Shown here piece after piece: positions 6,290 through 46,161 of a stretch of DNA of 64,000 bases. Source of the stretch: Candidatus Doudnabacteria bacterium. Lineage in GTDB: Bacteria > Patescibacteriota > Doudnabacteria > UBA920. The notes beneath the pieces are model-generated. The model was not told the DNA's origin. It made no database searches and worked only from the letters and a program-made list of their open reading frames with translations. The stretch is taken from assembly GCA_003151625.1 (NCBI GenBank), contig PLYC01000010.1:4283-68282 (forward strand), read 5' to 3'. Positions within the stretch are counted from its first letter, which is position 1; each line of letters starts with the position of its first letter. The translations under genes and the position numbers were made by a program.

Positions 6290-6665
6290 GTAAAATCTGT
6301 CACGATTTTAGAATTATAAGCACTTATTCGCCCCGTACCAGTCGTATGACTCCGGTGCAGGGCATAAACCAGTCGCCCATTCAGCACTCACAGTATCCAC
6401 TTAATTGGTTTGTGGCTGTGCCATAAACCGGAGCGAACACAGTGAGCGACTGGTTTATGGTTGCGGGACCCGGACTCGAACCGGGAACCTCAAGGTTATG
6501 CATACCACTACAACTTTAATTGCTTCGCAAAATTGCGAATTTGTGGTCTGGACTTTCTCTTTACCCCGACAAATTGTCTGGGTATCTACCATTAAGTCTC
6601 TACACCTTCTCCAAAAAATAAGCCGGAGCTTGGCTCGGGATTACCACCGCTAAGGGCTTCCCCGA
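6290..6665 (-). ncRNA. Candidate structured RNA upstream of and co-oriented with tRNA-Met/tRNA-Asp (possibly RNase P RNA; identity unresolved)
   Basis: No credible ORF; the track ORF 6405..6653 is low-complexity. Minus-sense contains AGAAAGUCCAGACC (resembles the RNase P CR-I/P4 5' strand GGAAAGUCCGG), a UGAAUG..CUGGUUUAU segment (resembles CR-IV/V ..GAUGAAUG..CCGGCUUAU), a 14-bp inverted repeat cataaaccagtcgc/gcgactggtttatg, and a tRNA-like T-arm + acceptor 3' strand + CCA (ggttcccggttcgagtccgggtcccgcaACCA, plus-strand 6451-6483) that lacks a matching 5' acceptor strand. Confidence 0.25.
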
Positions 6666-6937
6666 ATTTGATAGATTATCACGCTGGAATTACTCCCTGC
6701 GTAGCCCATTTAAAGATTAGTTACAAGCGGAGCTAAAAAAACTAACCATACTAACAACTTGAGCCTTGCGAGCTGCCAATTGCTCTATCCCGCAAATACA
6801 GTTTACAATAATTCAATAAAAAAAGCAACACCAAGCGGTTTTTTAGGTTTGTGAACATCAAAGTCCAAGTAAAAAGGCCTTATTTACACTAACGTTAAGC
6901 CGACATTAGTGTAAATGAATGATTTATTGCGAAATAA

Positions 6938-8607: not shown

Positions 8608-8904
8608 TTATATCCCACTACCTTCGTTAAATTCTTGAACGTCAGTGGCTCCTAACTGCATCCAGATTCGCGTTATATCCGCGACGCTATTTATCCCCAG
8701 TTTTTTTCCAATGTTTAACCTGTGTGATTTTATGCCTTCAGGGCCCACCCTCAATATCTCTGCAATAGCTTCTCTTCCTTTACCGGCTGCTATCCATCTC
8801 ATTACTTGTTTTTCAAATGGAGTCAGTTCCTTAAAACCCTCTTCTTCGGTTTTAGAAACATACAAATCCGGCTTAACTTCTAAGTCCATTTTTACTCTAC
8901 CCAT
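8608..8904 (-). CDS. LuxR/GerE-family helix-turn-helix protein encoded between atpD and atpC
   Basis: LTPFEKQVMRWIAAGKGREAIAEILRVGPEGIKSHRLNIGKKLGINS matches the LuxR-type HTH. The track ORF begins at 8934 overlapping the atpD 3' end; the real start is probably the internal Met near 8904. Confidence 0.55.
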   Translation of the reverse strand: MGRVKMDLEVKPDLYVSKTEEEGFKELTPFEKQVMRWIAAGKGREAIAEILRVGPEGIKSHRLNIGKKLGINSVADITRIWMQLGATDVQEFNEGSGI

Positions 8905-8908
8905 AAAT

Positions 8909-10626
<1,718 letters not shown>

Positions 10627-28297: not shown

Positions 28298-28378
28298 CTA
28301 CTAAATACTAATCGTTCTAAAAATACTAAACTCCCATGAGGCCCTTTAGTACTTTTAGAGTCTTTAGTATTTAGTAGA
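28298..28378. repeat. CTACTAAATACTAA-family long inverted repeat (copy 1)
   Basis: gtctactaaatactaatcgttctaaaaatactaaactc...gagtctttagtatttagtagag: ~36-bp arms, near-perfect. Confidence 0.8.
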
Positions 28379-36010: not shown

Positions 36011-36092
36011 ACAATCTTCTACTAAATACTAAACTTTCTAAATGTACTAAATTGCGTAATTGAAGTTTAGTATTTTTAGACACTTTAGTATT
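36007..36092. repeat. CTACTAAATACTAA-family long inverted repeat (copy 2)
   Basis: cttctactaaatactaaactttctaaatgtactaaa...tttagtatttttagacactttagtatttagcagaa. Confidence 0.8.
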
Positions 36093-36110
36093 TAGCAGAA
36101 ACTTTTTAGT

Positions 36111-38891: not shown

Positions 38892-38925
38892 AAAAGAATC
38901 CTCTCACGAAAGAGAGGATTCTTTT
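38892..38925. terminator. Perfect bidirectional terminator hairpin between the convergent trxA and ATPase genes
   Basis: aaaagaatcctctc-acgaaa-gagaggattctttt. Confidence 0.6.
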
Positions 38926-40843
38926 AAATTTGATGCGATTCACCTGGGTTTAAAACTGTTTTTTGCATTTCGACTGCTTTATTTGGGATAACCGCCGCTG
39001 CCACAGGGGCAGCATGAGTCTGAATTTGATTTTTGTATTCCGTTTCAGGAGCCATTGCCGGAGGATTTGCTTTTGAGGGCTGGCTAAAGATTTGGCTAAC
39101 CGCTTCACTTGTCTGGCGGTTTGCCTGGTAAATTTTTTCCTGATGAAGGCTGGCAATCTGATCCCAGATCGGATTTTCCTTCTTTTGCTGTCCGCGGTCT
39201 TGCCCAAAGTTCTTGTTTGACTGCCTGGGTTGGTGGTTGGAATTTTGTTGCGGCGGCCTGTTAAAACGATCTTTTGATTTTTGGGGTCTGTCCGTATTTC
39301 TGTGCTCCTGATGTTTTTTTTCGAAGTTTTGCTTTGGAGCAGCGGACATATTGGCTTGTTGCGACAATTTTTGGGGTACGGGAATTTTTTGAACAATTAC
39401 TTCCGGTGCTGGTTCAGGTTTTTCTTCTTGAGGCTCCGCCTGGGATTGTCCTTGAGACGTAACCGGCTGATTTTGGTCGGCGGTCGCTGTTTGATCTTCC
39501 GTTTGCGGTGTCCCAATTAGCACCGCGGCTTCCTGATGATATTCCGCGCCCATCCAACGGGAAATTTTTTCTTCAACCTCCGCCACCGGGTTGGCATAAC
39601 GTTCCCGGGAAACTTTTAGAACTTTTTCCGAGTTGCCCGTTAAGTGTGCGGGGTTCGGCGAAAGTGTAATCGCGGAAAAAGGGTCGGAAGCGACACCGTT
39701 AATCATCAATTTTAAAATAATCGAATATTTTGGTAAATTAACCAGGTCGCTGGGGGTAAAAATCGGCTCAAACTCGGTTTCCAAAAATTCCGCGTCCACA
39801 GCGCCGATTCTAAATACGACAATTGTCCCGACGTTGCCAAAAATCGCGTCCCTAACCTTCGTACTCTTGTCTTCTTCCAACTGGGCAATGTACTGATGCC
39901 CGACAATTAAATTTAAACGGTATTTGCGGGCTTCGCTTAAAATAGTGGCAAAACTTTCCGTGGCAAAATTTTGGAATTCATCCACGTACAAATAAAAATC
40001 TTTTCTCTCTTTTTCCTCGATATCGGTTCGAGACATGGCAGCCAGCTGAATTTTGGTAACCAGCATCGCGCCGAGCAAAGCCGAATTATCTTCACCGACT
40101 TTGCCCTTTGACAAATCCATAATCAGGATTTTTCGATTATCCATTATTTCGCGCAAATCGATTGTACTTTTGGGCTGACCAACTATATTACGAATAATCC
40201 CCGAACTTAAAAACTGTCCGACTTTATTTTGAATCGGGGCTATGGCTTCGGTGCGATACTTTTCATTATAATTTGCAAACTCATCGACCCAAAAAGCCCG
40301 AACCATAGGGTCTTTAATATTATCAACAATTTTCTTCCGGTATTTTTTATCCACATACATCCTGGTAATACCCAATAAAGTATTCCCCGGACTGTCCAGC
40401 AAAGCTAAGATAGTATTGTTCAAAATATATTCCATTCTGGCCGACCACAGATTGGCCCAGATTTTTGTAAACACACCCATCAAGCCAGATGCCACCAAAT
40501 GCTTAAATTTGGGGTCTACAGACTCTAAAATGTTAAAGGCCACCGGATGCTCCAAATCCGCGGGATTAAAGTAAACCACGTCGTTAATACGGCTAGCCGG
40601 GACACAATCCAGTATTCTTTGTACCGAATCCCCATGAGGGTCTAAAAAAGCAATCCCATGGCCATTTTGGATGTCCTGAATAACCATATTCTCCATAAGG
40701 GTCGTTTTCCCCATTCCGGTTTTTCCTATTAAATACATGTGCCGGCGGCGGTCATCGGTTTTAATACCAAAAGGCACTTCCTTGTTTCGGAAGTTAGTTT
40801 TGGCAAATACGGTAATTAAATTTTCATTGTTTTTGTTTTCCAT
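38924..40843 (-). CDS. VirD4/TraD/TrwB-like (type IV secretion coupling protein-like) P-loop ATPase with a Q/P-rich low-complexity C-terminal tail
   Basis: LIGKTGMGKTTLM Walker A, FLDPHGD (compare VirD4 DPKGE), YLYVDEFQNF Walker B. No N-terminal TM helices. 639 aa, with ~200 aa of Q/P/N-rich tail. Confidence 0.5.
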   Translation of the reverse strand: MENKNNENLITVFAKTNFRNKEVPFGIKTDDRRRHMYLIGKTGMGKTTLMENMVIQDIQNGHGIAFLDPHGDSVQRILDCVPASRINDVVYFNPADLEHPVAFNILESVDPKFKHLVASGLMGVFTKIWANLWSARMEYILNNTILALLDSPGNTLLGITRMYVDKKYRKKIVDNIKDPMVRAFWVDEFANYNEKYRTEAIAPIQNKVGQFLSSGIIRNIVGQPKSTIDLREIMDNRKILIMDLSKGKVGEDNSALLGAMLVTKIQLAAMSRTDIEEKERKDFYLYVDEFQNFATESFATILSEARKYRLNLIVGHQYIAQLEEDKSTKVRDAIFGNVGTIVVFRIGAVDAEFLETEFEPIFTPSDLVNLPKYSIILKLMINGVASDPFSAITLSPNPAHLTGNSEKVLKVSRERYANPVAEVEEKISRWMGAEYHQEAAVLIGTPQTEDQTATADQNQPVTSQGQSQAEPQEEKPEPAPEVIVQKIPVPQKLSQQANMSAAPKQNFEKKHQEHRNTDRPQKSKDRFNRPPQQNSNHQPRQSNKNFGQDRGQQKKENPIWDQIASLHQEKIYQANRQTSEAVSQIFSQPSKANPPAMAPETEYKNQIQTHAAPVAAAVIPNKAVEMQKTVLNPGESHQI

Positions 40844-40932
40844 CGTTCAAAATATCCCCTGTCTTTACAACTACTGATTGGCGGCTACTTTACTAATTTA
40901 AGATAACGCACATTAGTATATTAGTAAAGCAA

Positions 40933-42288
40933 TTATAAAACTTCTGCCGTTGGCAGGTTCGAAGGGGCCCTGCCCTTTTTGCTTTCTACAGTGTGTACGC
41001 CAGCAGGCACCAAAGTTGTTTCGGTTGTTATTGGGAAGTGATACAAAGTGGCGATTTCCTCTACGCTCAGCAAAAACTTAGGACTACCAACATACATACT
41101 GCGGTTTTTGTAACCTCTTAAAAACCAATACTTACGGCGTTTGGTTTCTCTTTCTAAAAATGATTTTTCTAAAGTATCCGAAACCAAAGCATTTACTTTT
41201 GTCCAATTCGCGCGGTCTATTTTTAAAGTATTATGCACGCCGGCGCCACCGCCCGGGCTAAGATGCCTCATTGAGCCAATAATTTCAGTGCGCTTAGTTT
41301 TATCAAATTGGTCTTTAGGCGCTATATAAATGGTTCTAATTTTTGCATTGAAACTGGCTTTGTTGAGCTTTTGCTCAATTAAAGCGACTTTTTCTTTTTC
41401 GCCTTCAGTCATACTTATCCAATTATTTCTGGGCTTGTTTTCAGGTTCGGCATGTCCATGTCCGCCGCCAAAAAAAGTCTCAGAGTAGCTGAATTTGGCA
41501 AACCATTCAAACGGCAAAAGTAAAATACTGCTTAATGTTATTTTGTGCGGCATTTCTTCCCCGGTCAGATCCTTTATTTTTCTTTCAGCCCTTTCCGCCC
41601 ACTCGTTATTTTGGATTGGCTGAATCATAAGCTGAATAGCCAATACTTCATCGGGGTTTATTCTTTCCATTGTTTCGATAGTGCTGGTTAGAGAATCAAT
41701 GACTTTTTCTTCCGCAGAAGGGTGCTCAAAATCCTTATAAGTTTTTATTGGGATAACGCTGTCCTGAACCATTTTCCATTCGGTGCCAAAAAAATCATAG
41801 AGACCATCTTCGTTATGGTGTACGTTTATATGAAATTTTTCCATATAGTCATCGACAACGGAAATTTCGGCGGATGGATACTGGGAATAAAACGCCGACT
41901 CAACCAAATGCTGATATCTTTTTGGCGTTCTTATCACAAATGAGACGTGCCCACCCAGGCTGATAATTTCCAAAGAGTACCAAAGCTGAAAGCGGCCCTG
42001 CATATATTTTTGTTCAAAGGTAATACTGGCGTGCAGAGCGTGCATTTGGGCAAAAATATTTTCAACCGCCATGGTGCTGGCTCTGTTTTCTTTTGGTACG
42101 CGGATTTCTAAAAATACCCATTCGGTGCCTCTGACAAATTGCCCCTGAATTTCTTCCAAGTATTCAAAATAAAGCATGTAAATCAGGCCTAAAACAAAAA
42201 GCACCCATCCGTAATAGGTAACTACTACCAAAAAGGCTATATGGAAAACATCGTTAAAATTTGGAAATATGCTTGTTAAAACTTCCAT
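40933..42288 (-). CDS. Hypothetical membrane protein (two N-terminal TM helices) co-located with the VirD4-like ATPase
   Basis: 451-aa ORF with a hydrophobic N-terminus; no known motif recognised. Confidence 0.4.
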   Translation of the reverse strand: MEVLTSIFPNFNDVFHIAFLVVVTYYGWVLFVLGLIYMLYFEYLEEIQGQFVRGTEWVFLEIRVPKENRASTMAVENIFAQMHALHASITFEQKYMQGRFQLWYSLEIISLGGHVSFVIRTPKRYQHLVESAFYSQYPSAEISVVDDYMEKFHINVHHNEDGLYDFFGTEWKMVQDSVIPIKTYKDFEHPSAEEKVIDSLTSTIETMERINPDEVLAIQLMIQPIQNNEWAERAERKIKDLTGEEMPHKITLSSILLLPFEWFAKFSYSETFFGGGHGHAEPENKPRNNWISMTEGEKEKVALIEQKLNKASFNAKIRTIYIAPKDQFDKTKRTEIIGSMRHLSPGGGAGVHNTLKIDRANWTKVNALVSDTLEKSFLERETKRRKYWFLRGYKNRSMYVGSPKFLLSVEEIATLYHFPITTETTLVPAGVHTVESKKGRAPSNLPTAEVL

Positions 42289-42307
42289 TTTTTATTTCAT
42301 TACTTCA

Positions 42308-42377
42308 CTTCTACTAAATACTAACCTTTAAAATTTCTGCTTTAGCATTTTTAACTTCATTAGTATTTAGTAGACGC
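42308..42377. repeat. CTACTAAATACTAA-family inverted repeat (copy 3, shorter)
   Basis: cttctactaaatactaacc...cattagtatttagtagacgc. Confidence 0.7.
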
Positions 42378-43459
42378 TACACTAGTGCGTATGAGTTCTT
42401 GCCGACTTTAGCAAAAAGTTTTTTATTGGATAGGCCGACTAAAATTGTATTCTTTTTAACCATTCGGCGTTTTAATACTTCTTCGATAATCCTTTCTTTT
42501 TTTAAAGGCTGCGGAGATTGCTTTAAAATTTCTACGATGACATCGGCGACCACACCAGGTTTATAACCCCATTCAGAAAGCGCGTAAATACCGCGCCCGA
42601 TTAAAATAAACCGTTGGTCCTTAATTAATTCATTATGAACGGTTTCTTTATAGGCTTTGCGGTCATCAAAACCGGCTTTGTTGATCATGTCCGTAATAAC
42701 GGAATAGTGTTCTGGTTTCTGATGGTGCTTCATAACCAAATAAGCTTTATCGCCAACGTCTTTTGGTTTAACTTCTTTCCATAAACTCAAACCCCAGTGT
42801 CCAAAGACATTTTTTTCAATTTCCACCGTTAGCTCTAGATAATTTAAAATAATTCGGTCATTAAGTTCGGCCTGGTTTTGCCTATAAAATTCAGTTTGTT
42901 TAAAGTGTTCTAAAAATTCTTCCGCCGCAACAGGGGTATTTTTTTCACCGATGATTTTCTTGCTTTCGGCTACAAATCCGGCGAGTAAATCTTCCCGGAA
43001 TAAAACCGAAACCCAGGCTTTTTTGTAGTTTTGATGGATAAAATGATCCAACTCCTCAACTAAATGCAAAATAAAAATTAAGGCGTTCTTTTCTTTGTCA
43101 TCAGTAATATTTAAGTGCATTAATAAACTCTCTTCGGCAATTATCCGGCCGTGTTCCGTAACGATATCAAGCAAAAAATTCTTTGCCGAAGCGAAGCTTT
43201 CCTTTTGGATGCTAGTCTTTTTTAAATGTTTTAACAAGTCTTTTTCTATTTGCCTGACTCTTTCTCTGGTTAGGCTATGCTCCTGGCCAATGGCGGCCAA
43301 AGTCTTGCTCTGGGCTCCTTCCAGTCCGTAGCGATGAATTAAAATACGCCGATCTCGCTCTTTAAGTGAATCTAAAATTTCTTTGACCACCTCTGAAGGC
43401 TTAAACTGGCTCAAAGATTCGTTCTGCTTGGTATGAATTATAGTATCAAGAATGCCCAT
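42377..43459 (-). CDS. Protein with an N-terminal sigma-70 region 4 HTH fused to an unknown ~260-aa domain
   Basis: RRILIHRYGLEGAQSKTLAAIGQEHSLTRERVRQIEKDLLKHLKK matches sigma-70 region 4. Confidence 0.5.
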   Translation of the reverse strand: MGILDTIIHTKQNESLSQFKPSEVVKEILDSLKERDRRILIHRYGLEGAQSKTLAAIGQEHSLTRERVRQIEKDLLKHLKKTSIQKESFASAKNFLLDIVTEHGRIIAEESLLMHLNITDDKEKNALIFILHLVEELDHFIHQNYKKAWVSVLFREDLLAGFVAESKKIIGEKNTPVAAEEFLEHFKQTEFYRQNQAELNDRIILNYLELTVEIEKNVFGHWGLSLWKEVKPKDVGDKAYLVMKHHQKPEHYSVITDMINKAGFDDRKAYKETVHNELIKDQRFILIGRGIYALSEWGYKPGVVADVIVEILKQSPQPLKKERIIEEVLKRRMVKKNTILVGLSNKKLFAKVGKNSYALV

Positions 43460-43641
43460 GAATTTATTTTTAGAAATTCAGCCTAACCGGAGTACCGGCT
43501 TATTGGAACAAAGTCCAAGGGTAGATCGACAACGATAGAAATTAATTTGTAAAAGACTAACAACTCTTCTAACGGCTAGCAATTATTTCCAATAGTATAG
43601 CATAAAATTAGCTTAATTGTCAAATACCCCTACATAAAATA

Positions 43642-43665
43642 AATCCCCCTTATTTGAGAGGGATT
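43642..43665 (-). terminator. Terminator hairpin downstream of secF
   Basis: Minus-sense aatccctc-tcaaata-agggggatt followed by a T-rich run. Confidence 0.45.
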
Positions 43666-43707
43666 CAATATCCTAATATCTTAATTTCCAAATATCGGTA
43701 ATATCTT

Positions 43708-44601
43708 TTATACTTGCTTTGTTTTCCACTTTTGCCAGAGGACTAAGACAGGGCTGGCAATAAATATTGAGGAATAAGTACCAACAATAATACCAATAAA
43801 CAAGGCAAAAACAAAGTATCTGATAGTGTCGCCGCCAAATAAGAGGAGGCTTAACAAAACAAACAACACGGTTAAGCTGGTGTTTAAAGACCTGACCAGT
43901 GTTTGGCTAATGCTGTGGTTAACAACAAACTCAATGCTTTGGCCGGCGTAAACTCTTAAATTTTCCCGAATTCTGTCAAAAACGACAATTGTATCGTGAA
44001 CCGAGAAGCCTAAAACCGTAAGCATGGCGGTAACAAACAAACTGTCAATTTCCACACCTTTAAAATGTCCTAAAATTGAAAATGCGCCAAGTACAAATAG
44101 CAGATCGTGAATTAACGCAATTACAGCCGCCCAGCCAAAACGCCAGGATGTTACCGGCTTTGTAACTTTGCGAAAAGCGTAGCCGATATAAATAACAATG
44201 CCTAACGAAACGAATAAAAGCTGTAAAAATGCATCTTGCGTTAACTGCTTGCCAATTACCGGTCCAATTGAGTTATACTCGGTTTCTGTAAAATTTCCGG
44301 CTGCGGCCTGAATTTTGGCCAGCAACTGATCGTGCTGGTCTTTGCTCAAACTCTGGCTTTCAATAATTAAGCCGTTATTAGATGCCGTCTGAATTTGAAA
44401 ATTTCCAAGATTTTGTGACCTTACGGCATCCTGTACCTTGGCCACATCAACCGGCTGTTTAAACTGTAGTTGAACCTGGCTACCACCTTTGAAATCAATA
44501 CCCAATTTTAGATGATAAACGGAAAGTGAGACTATCCCAAAAATCAGAATAATCCCTGAAACACAAAAGAAAAATTTGTAATATTTTAAAATATTAAACA
44601 T
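43708..44601 (-). CDS. secF: Protein translocase subunit SecF
   Basis: 297 aa, SecF N-terminal TM plus periplasmic domain plus C-terminal TM bundle. Confidence 0.9.
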   Translation of the reverse strand: MFNILKYYKFFFCVSGIILIFGIVSLSVYHLKLGIDFKGGSQVQLQFKQPVDVAKVQDAVRSQNLGNFQIQTASNNGLIIESQSLSKDQHDQLLAKIQAAAGNFTETEYNSIGPVIGKQLTQDAFLQLLFVSLGIVIYIGYAFRKVTKPVTSWRFGWAAVIALIHDLLFVLGAFSILGHFKGVEIDSLFVTAMLTVLGFSVHDTIVVFDRIRENLRVYAGQSIEFVVNHSISQTLVRSLNTSLTVLFVLLSLLLFGGDTIRYFVFALFIGIIVGTYSSIFIASPVLVLWQKWKTKQV

Positions 44602-44617
44602 ATTTTTTAGAAGCGAA

Positions 44618-44704
44618 GTTAAATGCGAAAAAATTAATCGAGCGAAACAAACGCGAATTCGCGTTTAAATTCGCGTTGCAGAAGCGGCATTTTTTTCGCT
44701 TCTA
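44618..44704. mobile_element. MITE-like element (copy B, secF-secD spacer)
   Basis: tagaagcgaagttaaatgcgaaaa...acgcgaattcgcgtttaaattcgcgtt...cgcttcta. It shares the ends, the internal GCGAATTCGCG palindrome and the ttcgcgtt segment with copy A. Confidence 0.55.
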
Positions 44705-46161
44705 CTAATTCCAAATAACCACGGATGCGTGGCAATGTTATTACCAACGAATACCCGCAAAAACGTCCTGGTTACGGTAATGGCTGTAAACATAGAAATT
44801 AATATGCCGACACCGAGAGTAACCGCAAAGCCTTTAATTGACGGGGTTCCAAAAATATACAGGATGGTTGTGGTAATAAGGCTGGAAACATTGGAATCAC
44901 GAATGGACAGCCATGCCCGGTTAAAGCCTTCTTCCACGGCTTTATGGATTTCTTTGCCCGAGCGGATTTCTTCCTTAAGCCTTTCAAAAATTAAAATGTT
45001 CGCGTCAACGGCCATGCCAATGGACAAAATAAATCCCGCGATGCCGGCCAAAGTTAAAGTTACCGGAGCAAGGCCGTTTAAAAATATTAACAGTACGTAG
45101 CTTAACAGGGCCAAAATTCCGAACCAGAAGCTGACTGTTAATCCCAAAAAGAAAAACAGACCGACCAAAACAACTGCCGTAAATGAAATCCCAATTTTAA
45201 AAATAGCAAACGAGACTACGGCATAAACTAACAAAGCCAGAGTAGCCAAAATTCCCGGGAACCGGTAATAAACAATCATAAACAGGGCTATCATAACAAG
45301 TCCAATTAGACCTGCTTCCACGGATTTTTGCACTGACTCTTTACCCAAAGTCGCACCGACAGTTTCCTGAGAGATAAGTTTAATAGGCACAGGCAATGCG
45401 CCGCTGTTTAGTCTGGTGGCCAAATCTTTGGCCTGCTGAACAGTAAAATTGCCAGTTATTACGGCTGTGCCGTCAGTAATGGCATTTTGCACGGTCGGAG
45501 CGGAAAGCAGTTGGCCATCAAGAAAAATAGCAATAGGTTTGCCAATGTTGGCGGAAGTAATTTGCGAAAAAATCTTGGCCCCGTCGCCGTCAAATTGCAA
45601 ACGAACCACAACCTGATTGCTTAAACTTTGGCCCTGTTGGAAATCAACCGTAGCTTTTTGCAACTGTTTGCCGGATAACCCTGTAGACAACCACTGACTC
45701 CCGGCGTCCAGAGTTAGCGCGTTTGTGCTGGAAGCGGTTATTTGTTGAGGATTCGGATTTTGTACCTTAAATTCAAGGGTTGGGGTTTGGCCAATTTGGT
45801 TAATGGCGTCATTTATATCCTTAATTCCCGGGAGCTCAATAATTATTTGATTACTGCCCGAGACTTGAACCAAAGGTTCGCTGACACCAAAACTATTTAC
45901 GCGTCTTTCAATCGTGTCACGGATGGCATTTAAAGCATCTGCCTGGTCAGCCGGGGCAATACCGCTAAAATCCGCCTGGTAAACCAAATGGCTTCCGCCT
46001 TGTAAATCTAGACCCAAATGGACTTTAAAGCTTTGGCTATAAGGGATTTTTAGAGCTTTTAGGCTGATTCTACTGCCCTGCGGTAATACTATCCATACGG
46101 CTGCCGCGGCAATAAGTAAAATCGCGAAAAGTGAGGAAAAAAGTTTAAGTTTTGGGTGCAT
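44665..46161 (-). CDS. secD: Protein translocase subunit SecD
   Basis: 498 aa with a large periplasmic domain then the C-terminal 5-TM bundle. Confidence 0.9.
   Translation of the reverse strand: MHPKLKLFSSLFAILLIAAAAVWIVLPQGSRISLKALKIPYSQSFKVHLGLDLQGGSHLVYQADFSGIAPADQADALNAIRDTIERRVNSFGVSEPLVQVSGSNQIIIELPGIKDINDAINQIGQTPTLEFKVQNPNPQQITASSTNALTLDAGSQWLSTGLSGKQLQKATVDFQQGQSLSNQVVVRLQFDGDGAKIFSQITSANIGKPIAIFLDGQLLSAPTVQNAITDGTAVITGNFTVQQAKDLATRLNSGALPVPIKLISQETVGATLGKESVQKSVEAGLIGLVMIALFMIVYYRFPGILATLALLVYAVVSFAIFKIGISFTAVVLVGLFFFLGLTVSFWFGILALLSYVLLIFLNGLAPVTLTLAGIAGFILSIGMAVDANILIFERLKEEIRSGKEIHKAVEEGFNRAWLSIRDSNVSSLITTTILYIFGTPSIKGFAVTLGVGILISMFTAITVTRTFLRVFVGNNIATHPWLFGISRSEKNAASATRI

Follow-up and report, generated by a model that had tools for sequence, protein, structure and literature searches.

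The window, the whole 64-kb stretch of Doudnabacteria DNA analysed here, carried three open reading frames on the minus strand, whose positions and lengths (360, 451 and 639 aa) agreed with the three-gene cluster described in an earlier note on this DNA. The first gene, SIG (42377..43459), encoded a 360-aa protein with a sigma-70 region 4, a HARE-HTH domain and winged helices. It was followed by MEM (40933..42288), whose 451-aa product combined a membrane anchor (residues 13-41), a domain with a VirB4-matching fold (residues ~57-420) and a conserved C-terminal SKKxxAPxNLP linker motif, and by ATPase (38924..40843), encoding a soluble 639-aa coupling-protein-like P-loop motor with a core at residues 1-430 and a Q/P-rich tail at residues 431-639. 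Upstream of SIG on the minus strand, the site at 43594..43623 (TTGACA-18-TATACT with a TG extension, sigma-70 type) was the top promoter-like candidate of the region, a predicted promoter that matched the consensus at 11/12 positions. A terminator-like hairpin at the end of the upstream secF (43640..43667, minus strand), an 11-bp stem followed by a T-run, marks the predicted 5' boundary of the operon. The predicted 3' boundary is marked by a second terminator-like hairpin (AAGAATCCTCTC/GAGAGGATTCTT; 38894..38923, minus strand) located immediately after the ATPase stop codon. This second hairpin was strong on both strands in sub-threshold Rfam hairpin models, and these hairpin-like matches at the terminator were the sole Rfam matches across the operon, where no known RNA was found. 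The flanking genes were housekeeping genes (secDF, thioredoxin, a D-Ala-D-Ala carboxypeptidase-like gene and mraY), and the GC content of the cluster was ordinary for the window. No virB4, relaxase, integrase, other type IV secretion system (T4SS) gene or ATPase paralogue was found within the 64 kb.

The gap between SIG and MEM contained an AU-rich hairpin with a 16-bp stem (42311..42373, minus strand; -22.6 kcal/mol, z = -4.9), which included an exact CTACTAAATACTAA inverted pair at 42311/42360 and was not followed by a U-run. The motif pair was non-random in the window (6 matches vs 0.7 expected). The hairpin was repeated genome-wide, and at the SIG-MEM position it was not conserved among relatives, in which the size of this gap ranged from 0 to ~170 bp. 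The MEM-ATPase gap held a weak 12-bp hairpin (40884..40932, minus strand) with a sequence unlike the CTACTAAATACTAA element, and its folding energy of -11 kcal/mol (z = -1.1) was like that of shuffles. The CTACTAAATACTAA elements had been placed in two of the three gaps, but the exact inverted pair was found in the SIG-MEM gap only, with none upstream of SIG.

The Walker A (GKTGMGKT), DPHGD and Walker B (YLYVDEFQNF) motifs of ATPase were present as described, and their residues were invariant in the family alignment. Profile-HMM searches supported the proposed resemblance to type IV coupling proteins (T4CPs). The protein matched the Pfam families TrwB_AAD_bind (54.2 bits, cut-off 20.5), TraG-D_C (35.4, cut-off 22) and T4SS-DNA_transf (27.6, cut-off 20.1), whereas DUF87/HerA, at 38.1 bits, was above its cut-off but below TrwB_AAD_bind, and FtsK_SpoIIIE gave no Pfam match; neither FtsK nor HerA was the better match. 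A replacement of FtsK by ATPase was ruled out by this absent match together with the complete, essential and separate FtsK of S. epibionticum. The top PDB relatives by sequence were TrwB and DotL, and PHROG 5156 was matched with 213 bits. Among the NCBIfam equivalog and subfamily models (TraD, VirD4-CD1115 etc.), the best scores stayed far below the cut-offs (56.6 against 366 for SXT_TraD, and 40.8 against 250). The HMM libraries scored the motor as T4CP-like rather than VirB4-like, while pairwise hhalign comparisons with single pSK41 sequences (90% with TrsE/VirB4 and 48% with TrsK/T4CP) did not separate the families. By analogy with TrwB/VirD4, ATPase would form a hexamer. It shared with TrwB/VirD4/TraD the Walker A, DPxGD and Walker B motifs and a flexible C-terminal tail with short conserved motifs, but those proteins carry a transmembrane (TM) domain in the same chain and have relaxase or mating-pair genes nearby, and ATPase had neither. 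No hydrophobic segment was present in the chain, as expected from the reported lack of an N-terminal anchor. The last ~209 residues, described before as a disordered tail, were indeed Q/A/P-rich (Q 15.8%, P 10%) and carried the conserved islands ISRWMGAEYHQE, KKENPIW and VLxPGESHx-COOH.

MEM had been regarded as a two-TM protein. Two TM segments are possible, but only one hydrophobic stretch, 29 residues long (13-41), was present in the chain, and it appeared as one kinked helix in the model. In the structure model, the cytoplasmic domain (residues ~57-420) matched the fold of VirB4. Since this match came without residue ranges, we infer from the model that the fold is that of the VirB4 N-terminal domain specifically. 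The modelled link between MEM and VirB4 is by fold only: there was no sequence similarity to the VirB4 N-terminal domain or TrsD, and the hhalign probability with pSK41 TrsD, pSK41 TrsE and phage G gp155 was <1% in each case. MEM had no PDB relatives by sequence. A search with 22 members of the MEM family at E<=10 gave no matches in a copy of Pfam that did not include PF26449, the family to which MEM belongs in precomputed annotation.

Counterparts of MEM and ATPase were found joined in one chain elsewhere. The T4CP of Embleya sp. NBC_00896 plasmid unnamed2 (NZ_CP108778; 812 aa) consisted of a TM segment (residues 34-56), a MEM-like domain of ~320 aa (residues 80-399) that included an ELAxLxHxP...PPxxIP linker, and an ATPase domain (residues 415-780). 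The order of anchor, MEM-like domain and motor in this long monoderm T4CP was thus the same as in MEM followed by ATPase. The hhalign probability of the Embleya alignment was only 42%; the motor, of the TrwB/T4SS-DNA_transf type, was 31.6% identical to the window ATPase. The Embleya protein was a single polypeptide encoded in a PrgI - VirB4 - T4CP - Replic_Relax - NlpC/P60 cluster, beside a relaxase-family gene, whereas the window had two separate genes among chromosomal housekeeping genes, with a sigma-4/HARE-HTH neighbour and no T4SS genes in 64 kb. The Replic_Relax (PF13814) partner was absent from the window locus, and the long T4CP was present only as split genes. The ATPases of phage “DNA translocation operons” (PHROG 5156, Bacillus phage G gp156, SPO1 gp27.4 and 0305phi8-36 orf201) also contained a MEM-like domain and an ATPase in one chain, but had no N-terminal TM anchor. 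The PHROG 5156 profile covered MEM at 49-291 and ATPase at 392-814, and phage G gp156 aligned with MEM over residues 28-313 (hhalign 97.5%, E 8e-12) and with ATPase over residues ~373-780 (28% identity over 89% of the query). The phage ATPases adjoined a DNA-binding HTH partner, and that of phage G adjoined a VirB4-like protein. The Replic_Relax partner there was unrelated to SIG, as the comparison of SIG with SPO1 gp27.3 gave an hhalign probability of 0.2%. These fused homologues, located beside an HTH/relaxase-like gene, belong to an operon that is dispensable in the laboratory and whose role is putative (Pathria et al. 2012, PMC3357382). Two further homologues were rejected, that of Bradyrhizobium as a fusion, its N-terminus not being MEM-like, and that of Natrinema as a protein of the same kind, its architecture being different. 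An apparent MEM-ATPase fusion in one locus (L052) was produced artificially by a masked N-run. MEM combines the N-terminal anchor with a domain of VirB4-matching fold and is fused to the same ATPase elsewhere, and, judging from the sequences, MEM and ATPase very probably constitute one split T4CP unit. The T4CP anchor was not in the ATPase chain but on the separate MEM, and it counts as present only if the two genes are taken as one protein.

The occurrence of relatives on plasmids and phages would also fit a mobile-element remnant or a module of anti-phage defence such as a MADS-like one, and the best PADLOC match of ATPase was mad8 (59.6 bits). In the same search, the match of SIG was confined to the sigma-4 part of MzaA, while MEM gave none. 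MADS is an eight-gene operon, yet the neighbourhood contained no other mad genes and no methyltransferase, integrase or relaxase. Scanning IMG/VR viral contigs with the ATPase and MEM alignments revealed no relatives. Together with the ordinary GC content, the near-universal distribution and the fixed housekeeping position of the genes, these results make a defence or mobile origin highly improbable.

SIG was composed of the region 4 (residues ~21-83), two winged-helix-like domains, the HARE-HTH (residues 238-297) and a C-terminal winged helix. The sigma-70 region 4 was genuine, as claimed (Pfam 43.2 bits, cut-off 24.1), with a TRERVRQIE recognition helix and ~30% identity to SigA region 4, and SIG keeps the residues with which sigma reads the -35 TTGACA hexamer in sigma-70 structures. 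However, sigma region 2 was absent, Sigma70_r4 being the only sigma match in SIG, and the NCBIfam sigma matches covered residues ~4-88 only and were far below cut-off. Without regions 1.2, 2 and 3, SIG cannot be a sigma factor. The remainder of the protein, called an unknown domain before, contained the HARE-HTH (40.1 bits, cut-off 25.9) and the further winged helices. This delta-like domain is common to SIG and the RpoE delta subunit, but it is N-terminal in delta and internal in SIG; delta has an acidic tail, whereas SIG ends in a winged helix and has extra winged helices. SIG is therefore not a delta subunit, and it scored 29.9 against the delta model TIGR04567 (cut-off 42). No nuclease or relaxase domain was found in SIG. 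The view that none of the three proteins could be assigned from sequence has thus to be revised for MEM, an anchor with a VirB4-fold domain, and for SIG, a sigma-4/HARE-HTH multi-winged-helix protein.

The co-occurrence analysis showed the genes of the trio together widely across Patescibacteria. SIG was located upstream of MEM on the same strand at 71/72 genome loci and 63/64 metagenome loci with room for it, with MEM identity among these loci down to ~25%. ATPase was directly downstream of MEM at 56/67 genome loci, and in a large clade (all 50 metagenome loci that could be tested, and 11 genome loci) no ATPase adjoined SIG-MEM. In Doudnabacteria the entire 15-kb neighbourhood was syntenic, so co-occurrence within this group is largely not independent evidence. 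Across the phylum the three genes stay together, and the trio is not known to have been described before. Literature searches for DUF8128, for PF26449, and for HARE-HTH in combination with Patescibacteria yielded no relevant papers. In Tn-seq of S. epibionticum, the SIG homologue SEML1_0294 was essential, whereas the adjacent SEML1_0293, a 921-aa protein with a T4CP domain from residue 402, was non-essential (PMC10633639 supplements). From its length and domain offset, we infer that SEML1_0293 has a MEM-like N-terminus.

This difference in essentiality between the SIG and motor homologues, as well as the Doudnabacteria synteny, would be expected if SIG were an essential accessory factor of RNA polymerase that acts on its own and lies beside MEM and ATPase only because the gene order was inherited, with no function in common. 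The SIG-MEM adjacency, however, outlasts all other flanking synteny, to MEM identities of 25-30%, and the two genes share a strand and lie only a short distance apart, which makes mere inheritance of gene order quite improbable. SIG and MEM might instead be a sigma/anti-sigma-like pair, in which MEM would tether an essential transcription factor to the membrane until a signal frees it, with ATPase as an accessory remodeller or irrelevant. The best-conserved feature of the locus is a sigma-like gene with the gene of a membrane-anchored partner behind it, which persists even without an adjacent ATPase, and SIG is both essential and built of RNA-polymerase-type modules (sigma-4 and the delta-like HARE-HTH). 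Sigma region 2, one usual contact surface of anti-sigma factors, is nevertheless absent from SIG, the fold of MEM matches VirB4 and no known anti-sigma fold, and the MEM domain is covalently joined to the ATPase in the actinomycete plasmid and the phage, which ties MEM to the motor. A sigma/anti-sigma arrangement is accordingly improbable. SIG is probably coupled functionally to MEM and ATPase together.

ATPase could also be the cognate T4CP of the Patescibacteria T4SS, encoded at a distance from the virB4 cluster and delivering DNA or protein, with SIG as an unrelated neighbour or a regulator. The tails of T4CPs are partner-binding and contain short motifs, and the conserved short motifs in the tail of ATPase resemble them. 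The intact Embleya relative, moreover, is located inside a monoderm T4SS cluster. The T4SS of Patescibacteria is itself a conjugative system of monoderm type, and T4CP genes frequently lie far from virB4 (PMC12102498). In the same survey, T4CP homologues occurred in 2,918/3,035 Patescibacteria genomes, with 148/5,713 of the genes near virB4, and the authors remarked that exaptation “cannot be ruled out” (PMC12102498). VirB4 occurred in only 2,417/3,035 genomes (PMC12102498), and this excess of T4CP homologues over VirB4 speaks against a cognate pairing. So do the essentiality of the T4SS in S. epibionticum, where the T4CP-like gene is non-essential, and the identity of the invariant partner, which is SIG and no T4SS gene. 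We consider a cognate T4CP unlikely.

The interpretation that we favour, and to which we give an even chance, is that the cluster encodes a chromosomally fixed split T4CP of the monoderm conjugation lineage together with a sigma-4/delta-like DNA-binding partner. MEM would supply the TM anchor and the VirB4-fold cytoplasmic domain and dock the motor at the membrane, and the soluble ATPase would supply the P-loop motor. The two would together correspond to one “long” T4CP, which is seen intact in actinobacterial T4SS clusters and, in large Bacillus phages, as the same domain pair in one chain with the anchor missing. SIG would take the neighbour position that HTH/relaxase-type DNA-processing proteins hold beside such T4CPs, and it may bind DNA and/or RNA polymerase and so define or regulate a nucleoprotein substrate. 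Powered by ATP, the motor would then shift DNA at the membrane or across it, acting independently or as a feeder of the Patescibacteria T4SS, whose genes lie elsewhere; DNA translocation as the job of the system is our best functional guess and is put forward tentatively. The DNA binding, the ATPase activity and the contacts among the three proteins are all predictions from sequence. Because SIG was essential and the motor dispensable in S. epibionticum, SIG cannot be just an adaptor of the motor and must in addition serve an essential function independent of it, the simplest candidate being transcription.

A more far-reaching reading, which we regard as decidedly speculative and doubtful, is that the trio is a Patescibacteria-wide housekeeping machine without counterpart, in which a conjugation-derived motor was freed from secretion and wired to transcription through the essential SIG, and in which MEM and ATPase, as a VirD4-type motor bearing a VirB4-type N-terminal domain, are a surviving intermediate between the two T4SS ATPase families. 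Such a machine might, for example, be a motor acting at the membrane on DNA bound by RNA polymerase or at promoters, for the transcription-coupled transfer, tethering or uptake of nucleic acid. For T4SS evolution, the locus provides a coupling protein that bears a domain with a VirB4-matching fold. The MEM family (PF26449) gains a structural identity and is linked to uncharacterised genes of large Bacillus phages and actinomycete plasmids. The near-universal “orphan” coupling-protein homologues of the phylum would lack an anchor because the anchor is a separate gene. Patescibacteria account for a large part of the diversity of bacteria, and the majority of the genes conserved among them are without a known function; the operon unites three such families, one of them experimentally essential in the sole species with Tn-seq data. 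As S. epibionticum is genetically tractable, the trio is open to direct experiment.

On the minus strand of the window, three neighbouring genes, SIG (42377-43459, 360 aa), MEM (40933-42288, 451 aa) and ATPase (38924-40843, 639 aa), were present as described in the earlier note, whose observation was largely right and whose interpretation was partly supported and can be made considerably sharper. The three genes look like a single operon, since a candidate sigma-70-type promoter (TTGACA-18-TATACT with a TG extension, 43623-43594; 11/12 matches, the best of the region) was located upstream of SIG and a strong hairpin immediately 3' of the ATPase stop codon. The candidate promoter was preceded by the secF terminator hairpin. 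In Doudnabacteria, secD-secF (43708-46161 in the window) was directly upstream of SIG, and the same arrangement was found at L063, L067, L069 and L070, loci with a MEM identity of about 27-32% where the remaining flanking synteny was gone. The window was ordinary Patescibacteria (Candidatus Doudnabacteria) chromosome with ATP synthase, mur genes, secA, secDF and tRNAs, and nearly all genes were on one strand. It contained neither a further type IV secretion system (T4SS) gene nor a paralogue of the SIG, MEM or ATPase protein. A family of AU-rich nested palindromes built on CTACTAAATACTAA/TTAGTATTTAGTAG occupied intergenic gaps just 3' of stop codons (28298-28377, 36019-36098 and 42311-42373) and folded strongly (-22.6 to -36.9 kcal/mol, z -4.9 to -7.1). 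The copy at 42311-42373, the only one inspected for a U-run, was not followed by one and is thus not a classical terminator; the palindromes may belong to the REP-like elements or mark sites where mRNA is stabilised or processed. A group I catalytic intron (Rfam, 66.9 bits, above the gathering score) was matched at 6526-6728 on the minus strand, about 300 bp from genes for tRNA-Met and tRNA-Asp. The stretch around it had no long ORF, and ARAGORN called no intron-containing tRNA at this site.

The Walker A (GKTGMGKT), DPHGD and Walker B (YLYVDEFQNF) motifs of ATPase were as claimed before and proved invariant in the family alignment, and no hydrophobic segment was found, in agreement with the reported lack of an N-terminal membrane anchor. 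In the Pfam search, ATPase matched TrwB_AAD_bind (54.2 bits), TraG-D_C (35.4) and T4SS-DNA_transf (27.6), all above the gathering scores, whereas DUF87/HerA (38.1 bits) was weaker than TrwB_AAD_bind and FtsK_SpoIIIE gave no match, which bore out the proposed likeness to type IV coupling proteins (T4CPs). The NCBIfam matches (TraD, VirD4-like) agreed with this, though every score was far under the equivalog cut-off, and the solved structures nearest by sequence were TrwB and DotL. When profiles were compared pairwise with individual pSK41 proteins, VirB4 and T4CP could not be told apart; ATPase is therefore classified from its sequence only as T4CP-like, inside the VirB4/VirD4 branch with no finer placement. 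The 209-residue tail (38924-39550) was rich in Q, A and P, close to the composition noted before, but it was not a featureless disordered region, as conserved islands (ISRWMGAEYHQE, KKENPIW and the C-terminal VLxPGESHx) stood between variable linkers. In a Falkowbacteria-like sister clade (L054, L056 and L058), the islands were replaced by CSRCGxxTKVxFVPDGxRPVYCKxC, a zinc-ribbon-like CxxC...CxxC.

MEM, which had been described as a two-TM protein, did contain a membrane segment, but only one 29-residue hydrophobic stretch (residues 13-41), a kinked helix in the structure model. Neither the local Pfam copy nor the PDB gave a sequence match to it, and precomputed annotation placed Pfam family PF26449 on its homologues. 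The family (2,419 clusters at 50% identity, E<=1e-3) was strongly conserved at WYSLEIVSxGG, YAQYP, YPIKTYxDF, EELATLxHFP and the C-terminal SKKxxAPxNLP, the last present in 152/158 homologues. The Foldseek matches of MEM were TrwK chains only; as VirB4 alone matched, we infer that the VirB4-specific N-terminal domain was matched.

Three independent lines make it very probable that MEM and ATPase are two halves of one long T4CP, with the anchor plus N-terminal domain (MEM) and the motor (ATPase) encoded by separate genes, so that the earlier view that no function could be assigned is not supported for MEM. First, PHROG 5156 (824 positions, function unknown) was matched by MEM at 49-291 (E 7e-10) and by ATPase at 392-814 (E 1e-62). 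Second, residues 28-313 of gp156 from Bacillus phage G (825 aa) aligned to the MEM profile (hhalign 97.5%, E 8e-12), and the alignment of gp156 to ATPase covered 89% of the query with 28% identity; SPO1 gp27.4 showed the same pattern more weakly. Third, an Embleya plasmid T4CP (812 aa) began with a TM segment (34-56), which was followed by a MEM-alignable domain (80-399) with an ELAxLxHxP...PPxxIP linker and then by a T4CP motor (415-780), although the domain matched the whole MEM profile (303 columns, E 2.7e-4) with only 42% probability. Its gene cluster was PrgI/VirB3 - VirB4 - T4CP - Replic_Relax - NlpC/P60. On the basis of these fusions, the motif conserved at the MEM C-terminus corresponds to the linker before the motor in the unsplit protein. 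An apparent MEM-ATPase fusion at locus L052 was an N-run artefact. In a distant Patescibacteria clade (L062, L063, L067, L069 and L077), MEM and ATPase were 500-640 bp apart, with an additional membrane-protein gene of about 172 aa in between at L063 (clade example, L063:8330-8848, 8858-10327); the ATPases of this clade had no long tail, and their N-terminal YAPPPPxLPIYG resembled the C-terminal GPPAGLPIYG of their own MEM. Phage G (L160, record 87975-97198) also encoded a VirB4-like ATPase, gp155 (P-loop_TraG, AAA_10), immediately upstream of gp156, a T4SS-type ATPase pair in a jumbo phage genome.

SIG contained a genuine sigma-70 region 4, as proposed, but the fused "unknown domain" contained a HARE-HTH domain (238-297), and the structure model (pLDDT 79) was a chain of winged-helix-type domains; sigma regions 1.2 to 3 and a delta-type acidic tail were absent. 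Within the same genomes, conservation was higher for SIG than for MEM. Its TRERVRQIE helix was invariant, and these residues, which we take to be the -35 hexamer readers of sigma-70 structures, provide a lead. The survey covered 78 genome loci from species representatives and 80 metagenome loci, and MEM identity in it fell as low as about 25%. Where a locus had room, SIG preceded MEM on the same strand at 71/72 genome loci and 63/64 metagenome loci; three cases of overlapping ORFs, and two loci where another gene separated SIG from MEM, were counted by eye. ATPase directly followed MEM at 56/67 genome loci and at 0/50 testable metagenome loci of an L075-related clade. A sigma/anti-sigma-like SIG-MEM pair is improbable. 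The Doudnabacteria loci were not independent because the entire neighbourhood was syntenic there; in distant lineages the flanks were gone and SIG-MEM was kept, with secDF retained upstream in some. It is quite improbable that the adjacency of the three genes is an inherited gene order with no shared function. The deposited MAG taxonomy looked unreliable for L054-L056, L059 and many further loci, where titles such as "uncultured Gammaproteobacteria bacterium" and "uncultured Candidatus Saccharibacteria bacterium" accompanied Patescibacteria genes of other classes.

No description of the trio was found in the literature. VirD4-type T4CP homologues occurred in 2,918/3,035 Patescibacteria genomes, with only 148/5,713 T4CP genes near virB4, and their exaptation was considered possible, with no sigma-like or MEM partner mentioned (Quinonero-Coronel et al. 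2025, PMC12102498). That the trio includes the remote cognate T4CP of a Patescibacteria T4SS is unlikely. A PADLOC match to mad8 would fit a mobile-element or defence remnant, a very improbable origin; the MEM-ATPase unit is chromosomal, in a housekeeping position and widespread in Patescibacteria, with SIG as its constant neighbour. In S. epibionticum, SEML1_0294 (349 aa, Sigma70_r4 and HARE-HTH) was essential and the adjoining same-strand SEML1_0293 (921 aa, TrwB_AAD_bind 402-719, about 360 N-terminal residues without assignment) was non-essential (Wang et al. 2023, supplementary tables, PMC10633639). The offset of TrwB_AAD_bind, which starts at 402, suggests that SEML1_0293 is a further candidate MEM-ATPase fusion. 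Also essential in this organism are a complete FtsK and a second T4CP-like paralogue. For phages 0305phi8-36 and SPO1, a "DNA translocation operon" that can be dispensed with in the laboratory was proposed, made up of an HTH/relaxase-like protein and a VirD4-like ATPase of the gp27.4 family that lacks TM segments (Pathria et al. 2012, PMC3357382). In SPO1 (L161, record 88846-98102), gp27.4 adjoined the actin-like ALP protein gp27.9 and the Replic_Relax protein gp27.3, and both gp28, the sigma factor for middle genes, and gp27, the late regulator, were no more than about 2.5 kb away; the nearness of the sigma factor may be a coincidence.

In the split coupling protein, MEM would anchor a hexameric motor at the membrane, and SIG, which occupies the same genomic position as the DNA-processing HTH proteins beside related T4CPs, would bind DNA and/or RNA polymerase and supply or regulate the substrate. 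The motor would move DNA, alone or via a T4SS encoded elsewhere. Since the S. epibionticum counterpart of SIG was essential while that of the motor was dispensable, SIG would have a further function, for which transcription is the simplest candidate. The trio is best read as a coupling protein that is split and putatively exapted, and that is joined by a new partner.
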